From NCBI GenBank assembly GCA_009392915.1, contig CP045477.1, forward strand, positions 64,001 through 128,000: a stretch of DNA of 64,000 bases, written 5' to 3'. Position numbers and translations under genes: made by a program. This DNA comes from Candidatus Forterrea multitransposorum CG_2015-17_Forterrea_25_41 (GTDB taxonomy: Archaea > Iainarchaeota > Iainarchaeia > Iainarchaeales > CSSED10-239). Shown in pieces: positions 18,258 through 53,496 of this stretch (the first letter of the stretch is position 1; each line of letters starts with the position of its first letter). The notes beneath the pieces were generated by a model that was given only the letters and a program-made list of their open reading frames with translations, made no database searches and had not been told where the DNA came from.

Positions 18258-19148
18258 ATGAAAGAAAATTATTTTGTTAAAGATAAATTAAAAAAAATTG
18301 CAATTGCAAATTATTTAAAGAAAAAATTAGCTTCTGCAGGTTTTATAGATGTTGAAGTTTTAAAATCTGTGTTTAACACAAGAATTGTTATTTATTCTTT
18401 AAAACCAGGATTTATAATTGGAAAAAAAGGTTCAAATATTAGAGCTTTAACTGAAGATCTTGAAAAAAGATTTGAACTTTCAAAAGTACATATTGAAATT
18501 GGAGAAATTCCAAATAAAGATTTAGATCCAAAAGTTGTAATTGAAAATATTTTTTCAAATATTTCAAGAGGAGTTACTTGGAAAAGTGTTGTTTATAATG
18601 CTTTAAGACAAATTAAAGAAGCAGGTGCTATTGGTGCTGAAATTATTGCAAAAGGTAATACTTCTGGAAAAGGTCAAAGAAAAAGAAAATCTAGATTCTT
18701 CTTTGGTTATATGAAAAAAGCAGGAGATCAAAAAAGTCTTGTTGCAATGGAAAAAAGAACTACATTTCCTGGTCTTGGAACTATTGGAATTACATTAAGA
18801 ATTGTAAGACCTGATATTGTATTCTCAGATAAAATTGATGTTTTAGAGTTTTCAAAGAAATATAAAATGGAAATTCAAGAAGAAGAACTTTTAGAAAGAC
18901 AATCAGAAGTTTCAAAAGATGCTGAAGAAAAAGTTGAAAAGAAAAATGCTGATAAAAAGGTTGTAAAAGAAGATGATAAAACTGAGAAACCTAAAGTAAA
19001 AACTCCAGCAAAGAAAAAAGTTTCAACTAAAAAGAAAGATGATACAAAAGATGAAACAAAATCTGTAAAAGAAGAAAAACCTGTTGATTCTAAAAAAGAA
19101 GAAAAATCTTCAGATAAAGAAGAAACTAAAAAAGAAGAAATAAAATAA
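18258..19148 (+). CDS. rps3: 30S ribosomal protein S3 with Lys/Glu-rich C-terminal extension
   Basis: KH domain (GFIIGKKGSNIRALTEDL). The C-terminal ~90 aa are KKEE/KDET low-complexity sequence. Confidence 0.9.
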   Translation: MKENYFVKDKLKKIAIANYLKKKLASAGFIDVEVLKSVFNTRIVIYSLKPGFIIGKKGSNIRALTEDLEKRFELSKVHIEIGEIPNKDLDPKVVIENIFSNISRGVTWKSVVYNALRQIKEAGAIGAEIIAKGNTSGKGQRKRKSRFFFGYMKKAGDQKSLVAMEKRTTFPGLGTIGITLRIVRPDIVFSDKIDVLEFSKKYKMEIQEEELLERQSEVSKDAEEKVEKKNADKKVVKEDDKTEKPKVKTPAKKKVSTKKKDDTKDETKSVKEEKPVDSKKEEKSSDKEETKKEEIK

Positions 19149-32714: not shown

Positions 32715-33452
32715 ATGAATAAAAGTACAGAAAATAAAGCTATTGAAAATAATCCTTCTGAGAAAAGAACTCCAAATAATAGATTTCAAAAAACATTAGT
32801 AAATATTGATCTTTATTTAAAAAATGGTATCCATATTGGAACTAAATATAAAAATGGAGCTATGAGAAGATTTATCTTTAAATCAAGAAGTGATAAATTA
32901 AATGTAATGGATGTTCAGATAATTGATCAAAGAATAAAAACTTCAATTGAATTTTTATCAAAATTTAATCCTGAAGATGTTGTTTTTGTTTCAAGAAAAA
33001 AATATGCTTTATTTGGTTTAACTTTACTTGAAAAAACTTTTGGTTATAAAATAAAGGTTGGAAGATTTATTCCTGGTACTTTTACAAATCCAGATTCAGA
33101 ACACTTTATGGAACCAAAACTTGTTTTTGTAGTTGATCCTAATATAGATAGACAAGCTATTTTAGAAGCAACTAAAATTAGAGTACCTATAGTTGCTCTT
33201 GCAACAACTTCTAGTAATGTGAGAAATATTGATCTTTTAGTTCCTTTTAACAATAAAGGACGTAAATCTATTGCTCTTTATTTTTGGCTTTTAAACAGAG
33301 AGCTTCAATTAAAGAATGGTTTTATCAAGTCTGAAAAAGAATATAATTACAAAGTAGATGATTTTGTAATAACTAATGATGATAAAAAAGATGATGAAAC
33401 TAGAGATAGAAAACCAAGACCTAGATTTGTTAAGAAACCTTTTAGAAAATAA
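32715..33452 (+). CDS. rps2: 30S ribosomal protein S2 with N- and C-terminal extensions
   Basis: S2 core (LLVPFNNKGRKSIALYFWLLNRE) and a charged C-terminal tail DDKKDDETRDRKPRPRF. No rpoK lies between rpoN and S2. Confidence 0.85.
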   Translation: MNKSTENKAIENNPSEKRTPNNRFQKTLVNIDLYLKNGIHIGTKYKNGAMRRFIFKSRSDKLNVMDVQIIDQRIKTSIEFLSKFNPEDVVFVSRKKYALFGLTLLEKTFGYKIKVGRFIPGTFTNPDSEHFMEPKLVFVVDPNIDRQAILEATKIRVPIVALATTSSNVRNIDLLVPFNNKGRKSIALYFWLLNRELQLKNGFIKSEKEYNYKVDDFVITNDDKKDDETRDRKPRPRFVKKPFRK

Positions 33453-39706: not shown

Positions 39707-40255
39707 TTGTTTGTCATGTCTGAATTTATAAAATTCTCTGTACCTGAAGATTTAAGAGTTTTACAAGATGAAACTATTAAAAAATTATCAAAATCAGGTA
39801 AAATAAAAATAGGTATAAACGAAGTTACAAAAACAATTGAAAGAGGAAATGCAAAATTTGTTATTATTGCTGAAGATGTATCTCCTGCTGAAATTGTAAT
39901 GCATATACCAATAATCTCAAAAGAGAAAAAAATCCCTTTTTCTTATGCAAAAACTAAAGAAGATTTAGGTAAAATGGTTGGTATCTCTGCAAAAGCAAGT
40001 TGTGTTGCTATAACAGATGCTGGTTCAATGCAAAAAGAATTAACAACATTAATTGATAAGATTGAAGAAGTTTCTGGTGGTAAAAAAGCAGCTGTAAAAA
40101 CAGAAGATGTTAAAAAAGAAAAACCTTCTCCTAAAAAAGAAGAAGTAAAAAAAGAAGCTCCTTCTCCTAAAAAAGAAGAAGAAGTAAAAAAAGAAACACC
40201 TAAAGAAGAAAAACCAGAAAATAAAGAAGAAGTTAAAAAAGAAAACAAAGAATGA
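39707..40255 (+). CDS. rpl7ae: 50S ribosomal protein L7Ae with K/E/P-rich C-terminal repeat extension
   Basis: L7Ae core (GINEVTKTIERGNAKFVIIAEDVSPAEIVMHIPIISKEKKIPF). The C-terminal ~70 aa carry repeated KKEEVKKEAPSPKKEE. Confidence 0.85.
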   Translation: MFVMSEFIKFSVPEDLRVLQDETIKKLSKSGKIKIGINEVTKTIERGNAKFVIIAEDVSPAEIVMHIPIISKEKKIPFSYAKTKEDLGKMVGISAKASCVAITDAGSMQKELTTLIDKIEEVSGGKKAAVKTEDVKKEKPSPKKEEVKKEAPSPKKEEEVKKETPKEEKPENKEEVKKENKE

Positions 40256-45570: not shown

Positions 45571-45981
45571 ATGGAAATAGAATTTGAAAAATCAAGAAAT
45601 GAACTTTTAAATAGAACAAATGTTTTTGTAAAAATAAGAAGTGTTAAAACACCAAGTAAAAAAGAACTTCAAACAAAAGTTGCTTCTGTTCTTGCGTGTG
45701 ATCAAGCATTAGTTGTTGTTGATAAAATTTCTCAAGAATTTGGATCTAAAATTTCAAATGCATATGTTAAGGTTTATGATTCTTTAGAAGTTTTAAAAAA
45801 AATAGAACTTGAACATAATATTAGAGATCTTTTAAAAGAAGAAAAAGAAAAAGAAGATGCTCTTAAGGCTGAAAGAAAAGCAAAAAAAGAAGCTGCAAAA
45901 AAACCAGCTGAACCTGAAAAAGAAGAAGCTGAAAAAGAAGAAGCTGAAGAAAAGTCTCAGGAAGAAGTTAAAGAAGAGTAG
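45571..45981 (+). CDS. rps24e: 30S ribosomal protein S24e with K/E-rich C-terminal extension
   Basis: S24e core (NELLNRTNVFVKIRSVKTPSKKELQTKVASVL). The C-terminal tail is EAEKEEAEEKSQEEVKEE. Confidence 0.85.
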   Translation: MEIEFEKSRNELLNRTNVFVKIRSVKTPSKKELQTKVASVLACDQALVVVDKISQEFGSKISNAYVKVYDSLEVLKKIELEHNIRDLLKEEKEKEDALKAERKAKKEAAKKPAEPEKEEAEKEEAEEKSQEEVKEE

Positions 45982-46816: not shown

Positions 46817-47203
46817 TTTTAATTAACAATAGTTAATTAATTATATTTTTTAAAAATTAATTTAAAGAAAAGAATAGTGGTATAGTTTAATTTATTAATG
46901 TGTAATATTTTGTATATCTATTTTAGTATTATATATATATAGTTTATGTTCTATTCTTATATTGGATTGAAAAAGCTATTCTTTATAGAGATGATAGAAG
47001 AGCTTTTGTGAGTATTATGAGTATGACAATACAACACAAATCCGATAGTTAGGAGGAGCTAAACTCAACGTGTTTAAACGGAAAAAAAATTAAGGTGTGC
47101 TCCCCTATCTTTAACATTTACTATTTTTATTATTTTCTAATATTATTTTTTCAAATTCTATTTTTTTAAGTAAATCGTAATTTATAAATAATTTTTTAAT
47201 AAG

Positions 47204-47232
47204 TAACCTAAGTAACAATGTTACATAGGTTT
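47204..47232 (+). promoter_or_regulatory. 29-bp near-perfect palindrome TAACCTAAGTAACAATGTTACATAGGTTA 30 bp upstream of the PadR gene (candidate autoregulatory operator)
   Basis: Read directly from the sequence, with 2 mismatches from perfect dyad symmetry. A TATA-like TTTATAAATA sits ~20 bp upstream of it. Confidence 0.35.
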
Positions 47233-47261
47233 ATATTCTTTTTGTTATATGTATTCTTATA

Positions 47262-47624
47262 ATGGTTACAATAAAAAATATGGCTGATAATCCTGAAAAG
47301 ATATGGTTGCAATTTCTTATATTGAGATTGATTTATGAAAATCCAACTTATGGTTATAAGTTAATTAAAGATATTAATAAAATAAGTAATGGAAAATATA
47401 TTGTTAAATCAGGTACTATGTATACTACACTTAGACGAATGGAAAAAAATAAATTACTAAATTCTATTTGGGAAAAAAATGAGTCTGGTCCTAGTAGTAG
47501 AATTTATAATCTAACTATAAAAGGTAAAATGAAACTTAAAAATTTACTTAAAATGGTTGTTGAAAGAAAAAAAATAATAGATCAGTTAATTAAATTTTAT
47601 GAAAAAGAATTTAAAGAACAATAA
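47262..47624 (+). CDS. PadR-family transcriptional regulator
   Basis: YGYKLIKDI...SGTMYTTLRRMEKNKLL...RIYNLTIKGK matches the PadR winged-helix consensus. Confidence 0.75.
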   Translation: MVTIKNMADNPEKIWLQFLILRLIYENPTYGYKLIKDINKISNGKYIVKSGTMYTTLRRMEKNKLLNSIWEKNESGPSSRIYNLTIKGKMKLKNLLKMVVERKKIIDQLIKFYEKEFKEQ

Positions 47625-52474: not shown

Positions 52475-52500
52475 AATGTAATTTTTATAAACATATTTTA

Positions 52501-52554
52501 TATTACTCACATCTGTGTATTACTCACAATCTTTTTAAATGTTTTGAGTAATAC
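52501..52554 (+). promoter_or_regulatory. three copies of TATTACTCA(CA) (two direct, one inverted) immediately upstream of the Fic gene start
   Basis: TATTACTCACA at 52501-52511 and 52518-52528. The inverted copy TGAGTAATAC is at 52545-52554, 7 bp before the ATG. Confidence 0.35.
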
Positions 52555-52560
52555 ATATTT

Positions 52561-53496
52561 ATGAGTTATTTATCTAAACTTAAAAGAAATAATAAAACAT
52601 ATTATTATCTTGTAGAAAATATTCCTATATCTAAAGGTAGGCGAAAACAAATTAGAAAATATATAGGGACAATTAAACCTACAGATCAAAAATTATCTTT
52701 AGAACTATTAAAGTTTGAAAAAGAAATTACTTCTAAAAAAAAACAAATGCAAGGATTTACCTATTTAACTAAAGAAGAAATAAAAGAAGTAGATGAAATT
52801 AATTCAAATTTTTGGAAAAAATATAATAAATTATCAAAAACTGAGAGAGAAGAATTTTGGAATAATTTTATTGGAATTTTTGTTTTTAACACAAACTCAA
52901 TAGAAGGTTCAACTTTAACATTAAAGGAAGTTGAACTACTATTATCTGAAAATATATCTCCAAATAGACCTTTAGAAGATGTTTTAGAAGCAAAATCTGC
53001 AAAAAAAGCAATTAATTTTATTTTAAATTATAAATCTGATTTGTCAATAGATTTAATTACTAAAATTCATAAAATATATTTTAAAGAAAGCTTTCCAGAT
53101 ATAGCTGGTAAATTTAAAAGATTAAATAATAGAATAAAAGGATCAAAATTTGATACTACTCCAAAAGAACTAGTTTTAACTGATTTAAAAATACTTATAG
53201 ATAATTATAAAAAATTTAAAAAAGAATTACATCCAATAGAATTATCTGCTTGGTTGCATTGGTCTTTTGTAAAAATTCATCCTTTTCAAGATGGAAATGG
53301 AAGAATTTCAAGATTACTTATGAATTTTATACTTTTTAAAAATAAATATGCTTTAATAGATATTAAAACAAAAGAAAAACAAACATATTTTAATTCTCTT
53401 GAAAAATGTAATTATTTGAATAATGGAAAACCATTAGCTCAAAGATTAGTTAGAAGATTTAAAAAACAGTATAAAAATATATTTTCAAATTTATAG
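52561..53496 (+). CDS. fic: Fic-family AMP-transferase (class II, N-terminal inhibitory helix)
   Basis: Canonical Fic motif HPFQDGNGRISR. N-terminal inhibitory motif TNSIEG fits (S/T)xxxE(G/N). Confidence 0.85.
   Translation: MSYLSKLKRNNKTYYYLVENIPISKGRRKQIRKYIGTIKPTDQKLSLELLKFEKEITSKKKQMQGFTYLTKEEIKEVDEINSNFWKKYNKLSKTEREEFWNNFIGIFVFNTNSIEGSTLTLKEVELLLSENISPNRPLEDVLEAKSAKKAINFILNYKSDLSIDLITKIHKIYFKESFPDIAGKFKRLNNRIKGSKFDTTPKELVLTDLKILIDNYKKFKKELHPIELSAWLHWSFVKIHPFQDGNGRISRLLMNFILFKNKYALIDIKTKEKQTYFNSLEKCNYLNNGKPLAQRLVRRFKKQYKNIFSNL

Follow-up and report, generated by a model that had tools for sequence, protein, structure and literature searches.

In the 64,000-nt window analysed here (contig CP045477.1 of Candidatus Forterrea multitransposorum, positions 64,001 to 128,000; all positions below without a locus name are those of the window), the promoter of a gene encoding a Fic-domain protein (52561–53496, + strand, 311 aa) carries three copies of a 10-bp motif, two direct and one inverted, placed around its TATA box. 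Comparison with related loci showed that the sites are real and under strong purifying selection, with a fixed spacing to the TATA box and with concerted change of the copies where the motif has diverged, and the three sites are very probably a functional promoter element bound by a protein. We favour, with moderate confidence, the interpretation that they form an operator of the Fic gene's own promoter, read by the N-terminal module of Fic itself (aa 1–63, encoded by 52561–52749, + strand) and repressing its own gene; from the sequences compared we infer all three parts of this proposal, i.e. the binding of a protein, the Fic N-terminal domain as the binder and repression as the outcome.

The direct motif TATTACTCACA is located at 52501–52511 and again at 52518–52528 with a 6-bp spacer (tctgtg), and the inverse, TGAGTAATAC, at 52545–52554. 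Reading of the sequence and pattern searches agreed on these positions, which are those given in the original prediction; the inverted copy had also been correctly placed before the start codon, but at a distance of 7 bp where the measured gap to the ATG at 52561 is 6 nt, a trivial slip. When read from 52517 the proximal direct copy is GTATTACTCACA (52517–52528, + strand), and it forms the left arm of a perfect 10-bp inverted repeat, GTATTACTCA-N18-TGAGTAATAC, with arms at 52517–52526 and 52545–52554, 18 nt apart. The right arm is part of the inverted copy at 52544–52554 on the - strand (tTGAGTAATAC on the + strand, GTATTACTCAa on the - strand). A TATA box, TTTTTAAA (52532–52539, + strand, -29 to -22 from the ATG), lies centred within the 18-nt spacer between the arms, making it the centre of a split palindrome. 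The proximal copy is situated directly upstream of the TATA box, overlapping the expected position of the B recognition element (BRE), and the inverted copy follows the TATA box and precedes the predicted transcription start. The third, distal site is found 17 bp further upstream, ~60 nt upstream of the ATG (aTATTACTCACA, 52500–52511, + strand, seen both by reading and by pattern search); most orthologues, as well as a strain variant, have G at position 52500, which gives GTATTACTCA.

When considering a somewhat larger region, 52499–52572 was found to make up a 36-nt imperfect palindrome (75% complementary), likewise centred on the TATA box, in which the mirror image of the distal copy lands on the start codon (ATGAGTTATT, a 7/9 match to TGAGTAATA). 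This mirror copy could be a weak fourth site, its signal being inseparable from the constraint on coding for the conserved M-S-Y.

The host, which has 25% GC (19–30% G+C along the window), is an archaeon; the window encodes the archaeal ribosomal protein S4e along with an Rpb3-like subunit of RNA polymerase, and contains further translation genes of archaeal type. In archaeal promoters a TATA box lies ~26 nt upstream of the start point and is preceded by the BRE; the host being an archaeon, the TATA box is the relevant promoter element, and it is this element that the proximal and inverted copies bracket. Operon-internal genes of the window are preceded by Shine-Dalgarno (SD) sequences of the GGTG/GTGA type, while the genes placed first in their units have no SD sequence and instead a TATA-like octamer ending ~22 nt before the ATG, which indicates that these genes have leaderless mRNAs. 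The Fic gene matches the SD-less class, with TTTTTAAA at the corresponding distance, and no SD-like GGTG/GTGA was found in 52555–52560, directly before its ATG. Considering the position of the TATA box, the absent SD sequence and the analogy with the other genes of the window, the Fic mRNA is most likely leaderless, with a predicted transcription start at the A of the ATG or no more than a few nt from it (52559–52563, + strand, i.e. the TATA centre at 52535.5 plus ~26 nt). The earlier idea of a repressor operator at the Fic promoter thus stands in its core, through footprinting across lineages, constant spacing and concerted change, but not in the proposed overlap with a ribosome binding site, since a probably leaderless mRNA leaves no such site for the copies to overlap.

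It had further been claimed that the arrangement is unlikely to arise by chance. The exact 9-mer core TATTACTCA occurs three times on both strands of the window, all at the Fic promoter, with 0.94 occurrences expected, and for three-copy clusters of any 9-mer with at least two G/C within 60 bp a second-order Markov model predicts 0.07 occurrences per window, ~6% of the simulated windows holding at least one such cluster. Composition alone therefore gives the cluster only moderate significance and is no more than suggestive, and it is the conservation across 12 lineages that is decisive. All other three-copy 8–9-mer clusters of the window (19067–19140, 40110–40230 and 45833–45980) are in-frame coding repeats, encoding Lys/Glu-rich low-complexity tails, and not regulatory. 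Matches to the motif with one mismatch, at 33218 (coding) and 47007 (intergenic), were rejected as operators as they have neither a partner site nor a TATA box in register.

For the comparison Fic promoters were recovered from 12 independent lineages with a protein identity of 53–85%. A genome scan gave three useful loci, and a metagenome scan with the Fic alignment gave, among the matches listed, the locus L008 and about a dozen Fic loci with distant versions of the N-terminal domain; the back-translated patterns used in the latter scan were generic Fic motifs and the matches were mostly bacterial Fic genes. Hundreds of Fic homologues of ~310 aa are present in metagenome-assembled genomes of Diapherotrites; in all the homologues number ~860. 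Alignment of the promoters revealed a shared plan consisting of (G/T)TATTACTCA, then, 17 bp start-to-start, GTATTACTCA, 18 nt containing the TATA octamer, TGAGTAATA(C/A), 6–8 nt and the ATG. The spacing of the sites is constant across the 12 lineages, 17 bp between distal and proximal and 28 bp between proximal and inverted site (start-to-start). The inverted site, seen in each of the 14 promoters examined, is the best conserved, with a mean pairwise identity of 0.88; the distal site, in register in 11 of the 12 lineages, has a mean pairwise identity of 0.83, the proximal site 0.80 and the TATA-like octamer, kept in all orthologues, 0.74. The other 42 aligned columns show an identity of 0.355, about the random level for this composition. 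In the locus L005 the ATG is found 48 nt from the inverted site with the geometry between TATA box and site unchanged, and the element therefore belongs to the promoter and not to the start codon. No copies of the motif were found elsewhere in the window or in the ~6 kb around each orthologue, where it is confined to the Fic promoter, and the look at other defence or stress genes that had been proposed accordingly gave no further copies in these sequences.

In addition to being conserved, the copies change together. In L105 (60% identity) all three read TATTACACA / TGTGTAATA, and the N-terminal sheet of the Fic protein has Val in place of Asn20, a residue conserved to at least 90% in alignment A1; two further variants with Val20 are P0034 and P0091. 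In the clade with 53% identity (L095 and L008) all copies are GTTACTCA / TGAGTAAC and the N-terminus has a distinct signature, VYLVES..YFYL..RRQF. That the direct copy has changed along with the two arms of the inverted repeat speaks for one reader of every copy and against an RNA hairpin.

The same coupling is seen at larger distances. Fic relatives that are 30–37% identical and share the N-terminal module have other motifs in the corresponding places on either side of the TATA box, their genes being leaderless, and in these distant families the motif subtype tracks the N-terminal sequence: proteins beginning MH..YYLAHS go with TGTAGTCACC, those beginning MF..YYLVHS with TGTAGCCACC and those beginning MY.. 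with GTGG(G/T)CACC, and in L006 the motif is GTCTACCTTA / TAAGGTAGAC. When the 75 nt upstream of each ATG were examined for exact repeats, repeats of at least 8 nt were found in 17/22 Fic promoters as compared to 15/138 control open reading frames of the same loci, and repeats of at least 10 nt in 12/22 and 3/138, respectively. The genome of L091 holds both a family-1 Fic gene (the family of the window gene) and a family-2 Fic gene, each with the motif of its own family.

The family-2 gene of L091 is located 2 kb downstream of the family-1 gene, with a TGTAGCC pair around its TATA box (L091:5990–6110). In front of it lies what is left of a family-1-type promoter, GAGGCGGGATT and then two copies of TATTACACA 17 bp apart, which suggests that cassettes were replaced or stacked at one site. 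A family-2-type pair, GGTGACCGC-N13-GTGGTCACC, was also seen downstream of the family-1 Fic gene in L092 (4015–4050), where there is no family-2 gene, and may be the relic of a lost cassette. In the distant family with the motif TGTAGTCACC an inverted pair, GGTGACTACA-N11-TGTAGTCACC, straddles the stop codon (L011:3438–3468, L013:3444–3474, L016:3414–3444 and L020:1649–1679), the motif thereby marking both ends of the gene. Family 1, including the window gene, has no motif copies at the 3' end of the gene.

The candidate reader is part of an otherwise ordinary enzyme. Residues 100–311 of the Fic protein make up a standard class II Fic AMPylase (Pfam PF02661, E = 2e-19) with the catalytic motif HPFQDGNGRISR at aa 240–251, which fits HxFx(D/E)GNGRxxR and of which H240, P241, F242, Q243, D244, G245, N246, G247, R248 and R251 are invariant in 33 homologues. 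In class II Fic proteins an inhibitory motif, (S/T)xxxE(G/N), is carried on a helix N-terminal to the Fic core of the same chain, and here TNSIEG (aa 111–116; T111, E115, G116) is found in helix 93–115 of the model, with N112–L119 invariant. The AlphaFold2 model (mean predicted local distance difference test, pLDDT, 90.8) was matched by Foldseek to FICD (6i7g, E = 7e-13, template modelling score 0.69) and BT_2513 (3cuc, E = 3.5e-12), and a profile search against PDB gave 3cuc at 5.8e-33. There was also a match to the candidate defence family PDC-S04 of PADLOC (E = 5e-34), and SoFic was matched as well.

In front of this enzyme, the N-terminal module is predicted to consist of antiparallel strands at aa 3–9, 12–24 and 27–36 followed by a long helix (pLDDT ~90 in the model), and the first 40 aa carry a charge of +11/-1. 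Y14, Y16, (N20), R28, Q30, R32 and Y34 are invariant and alternate along the strands, for which reason they are expected on one face of the sheet. The module gave no Pfam match, no sequence match in PDB and no significant Foldseek match, and a profile search among 1.8 billion representatives placed it almost exclusively at Fic N-termini. Two other proteins, P0138 and P0163, have a Fic-type N-terminal module fused either to a 2Fe-2S ferredoxin of the thioredoxin-like type or to part of an acetate kinase; these fusions are probably chimeric gene calls but may be remnants of cassettes that have lost the Fic domain.

According to the proposed mechanism, the 10-bp sites would be read by the N-terminal module of Fic with its basic, three-stranded beta-sheet. 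Fic would act as a dimer, probable from its FICD/BT_2513-type relatives, or as a higher oligomer with widely spaced DNA-binding modules, one N-terminal module being placed on each arm of the palindrome and a further module or dimer on the distal site. In archaea a protein bound between the TATA box and the start typically blocks recruitment of RNA polymerase, and a site abutting the BRE can interfere with transcription factor B (TFB), as known for MDR1, Phr, TrmB and LrpA. Occupation of the site between TATA box and start, together with the one abutting BRE and TATA box, may likewise hinder binding of the TATA-binding protein and TFB or the recruitment of RNA polymerase, and negative feedback of this kind would keep down the amount of an AMPylase that is potentially toxic. 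The promoter and operator, together with regulator and enzyme, would form a self-contained unit of ~1 kb, which fits the different genomic location of the gene in each lineage.

Fic is proposed as its own reader because its neighbours differ in every lineage, with no conserved adjacent gene able to encode a dedicated regulator, and because of the coincidence of the Asn20Val exchange with the changed sites in L105, the clade-specific N-terminal signatures, the motifs specific to each family, the two genes with their own motifs in L091 and the precedent of CccR described below. Several observations weigh against this interpretation. In L108 the sites are mixed (ACTCA / ACACA / ACTCA) and yet Asn20 is kept, and the link between residue and base is therefore not strict. 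Family 2 uses direct and not inverted pairs of sites, which misfits a simple dimer with two-fold symmetry, and the co-variation of motif and N-terminus is confounded by linkage and shared descent, the cis site travelling with the gene. The fold of the N-terminal module, as judged from the Pfam, PDB and Foldseek comparisons, is not assignable to a DNA-binding family, and the upstream sites could mediate activation (at low occupancy) rather than repression.

When analysing the genomic context, the Fic unit was found to look mobile. In the window it is flanked by the stop codon of an RNA-ligase gene (52474) on one side and that of a TraB-family gene (53526) on the other, and this copy has neither a tRNA gene nor a flanking direct repeat. 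In five of 13 family-1 lineages an intact tRNA gene on the same strand is found within 250 nt upstream of Fic (L092:2867–2949, L095:2816–2950, L089:2721–2947, L088:2942–3064 and L008:1102–1174); the five include tRNAs for Cys, Ile and Asn and two that contain introns. The distal site begins 0–3 nt after the 3' end of a tRNA, or of a tRNA-like 3' fragment, in L092, L095, L105, L091 and probably L089, the distance to the tRNA 3' end itself being 1–3 nt in L092 and L095. In four lineages the promoter and the Fic gene are bracketed by direct repeats, giving units of 1.03–1.29 kb: 27 nt in L088 (3048–3074 and 4293–4319, unit of 1,245 bp), 15 nt in L008 (1165–1179 and 2453–2467, 1,288 bp), 13 nt exact, or 18/21, in L095 (2925–2937 and 4093–4105, 1,168 bp) and 14 nt in L105 (2427–2440 and 3458–3471, 1,031 bp). 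The repeats copy the 3' end of the directly upstream tRNA gene in L088, L008 and L095; in L105, where a tRNA gene was not found, the repeat merely resembles a tRNA 3' end. Flanking direct repeats are absent in the window and in L004, L091, L092, L098, L107 and L108. A 14-nt flanking repeat in L089 was not counted as an attachment (att) site, being a palindromic, hairpin-like element whose left copy is not a detectable tRNA. Within the bracketed units Fic is the sole gene and no integrase was found.

Taken from these sequence features, the Fic unit looks like a mobile, site-specifically inserted single-gene cassette, and for a self-contained mobile unit self-regulation is the economical interpretation. 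A more far-reaching model is a minimal single-gene DPANN cassette, combining an AMPylase with a beta-sheet DNA binder, which would insert at tRNA 3' ends (13–27-bp repeats), use the 10-bp repeats of its left end both as operator and as end-recognition sites and be mobilised in trans by an integrase of the host or a virus, or with participation of Fic; as a whole this model must be regarded as doubtful. When searching for an empty site by way of the RNA-ligase homologues, synteny was not conserved and the boundaries of the cassette in the window were not definable. The two independent contigs with the closest RNA-ligase homologue (L101 and L102, 78% identity) both end 20 nt past the ligase stop codon. 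In the window it is the Fic cassette that comes next, 26 nt after the ligase stop, and the assembly of the two contigs may have broken off at an element that is variable or repeated.

Three other explanations of the repeats have to be weighed against autoregulation by Fic. The sites may be a genuine operator bound by a separate, unlinked trans-acting factor, e.g. a small winged helix-turn-helix protein such as PadR, with the Fic module serving in substrate recognition or oligomerisation. This is rather unlikely but the most serious of the three, as conservation and geometry do not identify the binder and as the module has no significant likeness to any DNA-binding fold; moreover a PadR gene of the window (47262–47624) has repeats of its own by its TATA box, with a core that loosely resembles GAGTAAT/C. 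Speaking against such a factor, none of the lineages has a regulator gene linked to Fic, the cassette keeps its sites at different loci although it is apparently moving, the motif was seen at no other promoter examined, and in L105 the three sites have changed along with a residue of the Fic N-terminus. As the motif differs between Fic families, even within the genome of L091, each family would need its own unlinked factor, and the PadR gene near Fic in L107 is a different PadR, the promoter of which lacks a motif of the Fic type. PadR of the window was rejected as the specific candidate, with a motif resemblance of only 5–6 nt and no conserved linkage, and is kept as a rival of low probability. 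In its own promoter (47199–47240) the repeats AAGTAAC-ct-AAGTAAC-aat-GTTAC lie directly upstream of the TATA-like TTTATATT and are probably an autoregulatory PadR operator.

That the repeats are instead end-recognition sites of a mobile Fic cassette, like the arm-type sites of integrases, with the promoter overlap being secondary or with both roles combined, appears improbable. It would account for the bracketing direct repeats with their copies of tRNA 3' ends in L088, L008 and L095, for the placement of the distal copy next to tRNA ends in the five lineages named above and for the motif at the 3' end of the gene in family-2 cassettes. However, the cassette has no integrase or transposase, the Fic domain is that of a standard AMPylase and its ATP-binding motif is intact, family 1 lacks the 3'-end copies and the window has neither tRNA nor flanking repeat. 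The positions of the sites are fixed to the TATA box and the ATG and not to the tRNA junction, which is ~75 nt off in L088 and more than 130 nt in L008, and the best-conserved site lies between TATA box and start, as transcriptional control predicts. Least credible, and very improbable indeed, is that the inverted repeat works as an RNA hairpin, with a predicted stem of up to 13 bp, located in a 5' leader or terminating the upstream gene, and thereby controls translation or read-through. The predicted fold reaches -19.5 kcal/mol (z = -4.8 as compared to shuffles) and both arms have changed together in the 53% clade and in L105, formally preserving the pairing. Yet its loop would be the conserved TATA box, at the distance from the ATG typical of leaderless genes, so that the arms are probably not transcribed together; pairing leaves the concerted change of the third, direct copy unexplained, and the direct repeats of family 2 at the same positions cannot pair. 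The upstream gene differs in every lineage and the repeat is therefore not the terminator of that gene.

The closest precedent for an autoregulatory Fic protein is CccR of Yersinia pseudotuberculosis, a Fic toxin with a C-terminal helix-turn-helix (HTH) domain, which as a dimer represses its own promoter at a 10-bp inverted repeat, AGATAATCAT-N26-ATGATAATCT, near the -35 and -10 boxes (PMC9755527). The two systems have in common that a Fic AMPylase and a DNA-binding module (here a candidate one) are joined in one polypeptide and that a split 10-bp inverted repeat, here GTATTACTCA-N18-TGAGTAATAC around the TATA box, brackets the core promoter. They differ in that CccR is bacterial and binds by a C-terminal HTH, whereas the archaeal protein has an N-terminal beta-sheet module without family assignment, and in that the promoter of the latter is archaeal (TATA/BRE, leaderless) and contains a third, direct site. 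The Fic cores belong to different subgroups, the one in the window being FICD/BT_2513-like, and binding has been demonstrated for CccR whereas for the protein of the window we infer it.

In the type II toxin-antitoxin system Phd/Doc, the toxin Doc has a Fido fold and the promoter contains repeated operator sites. The Fic unit resembles it in having a potentially toxic Fido enzyme, repeated putative operator sites and what looks like the compact form of a mobile, self-regulating module. In contrast to Phd/Doc there is no separate antitoxin or repressor gene for Fic, the upstream gene differing in every lineage and often being a tRNA gene; a search of the Fic loci for the adjacent antitoxin of a type II system (Phd/Doc, FicA/FicT) revealed no conserved small open reading frame, the upstream gene in the window being the RNA ligase. 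Inhibition of Fic is furthermore intramolecular, by the TNSIEG helix, and regulator and enzyme would be one and the same protein.

Among archaeal repressors, the binding sites of MDR1, Phr, TrmB/TrmBL1 and LrpA lie at the TATA box or shortly downstream of it, and Ss-LrpB autoregulates via three regularly spaced boxes in its own control region. The Fic sites, between TATA box and start and just upstream of BRE/TATA, are similarly placed; those repressors are of the HTH or Lrp type with compact palindromes, whereas in the Fic promoter the half-sites are spaced by 17 and 28 bp and would be read by a beta-sheet module fused to an enzyme. A likeness is also seen with tyrosine integrases (lambda Int, Tn916 Int and HPI Int, 3jtz) in the 10-bp direct and inverted sites beside an att junction at a tRNA 3' end, as found in the relatives, and, with their N-terminal arm-binding domain, of the AP2/integrase arm-binding type of fold, in the three-stranded beta-sheet and helix of the candidate Fic reader, where the Foldseek similarity is not significant. 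In the literature on Fic regulation in archaea and DPANN no description of this Fic family or of its motif was found. On balance, and as a comparison of sequences, the element would seem to represent an archaeal variant of Fic autoregulation that makes use of a beta-sheet domain and is conserved across a large DPANN Fic family.

If this is correct, control of its own promoter by a Fic enzyme would be seen here for the first time in archaea, and the N-terminal region of the protein would be a new small DNA-binding module of the beta-sheet type. The natural variants suggest a readable code, with Asn20Val accompanying the change from ACTCA to ACACA and with H, F or Y at position 2 accompanying the three motif subtypes of the sister family. 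The element would also offer a clean test case of ~60 bp for how, on a leaderless gene, archaeal initiation is hindered by a regulator bracketing the TATA box. DPANN archaea are a group for which hardly any gene regulation has been described, and in their reduced genomes single-gene Fic modules, candidates for anti-virus defence according to the matches to PADLOC PDC-S04 and SoFic, would then travel as self-regulated cassettes.

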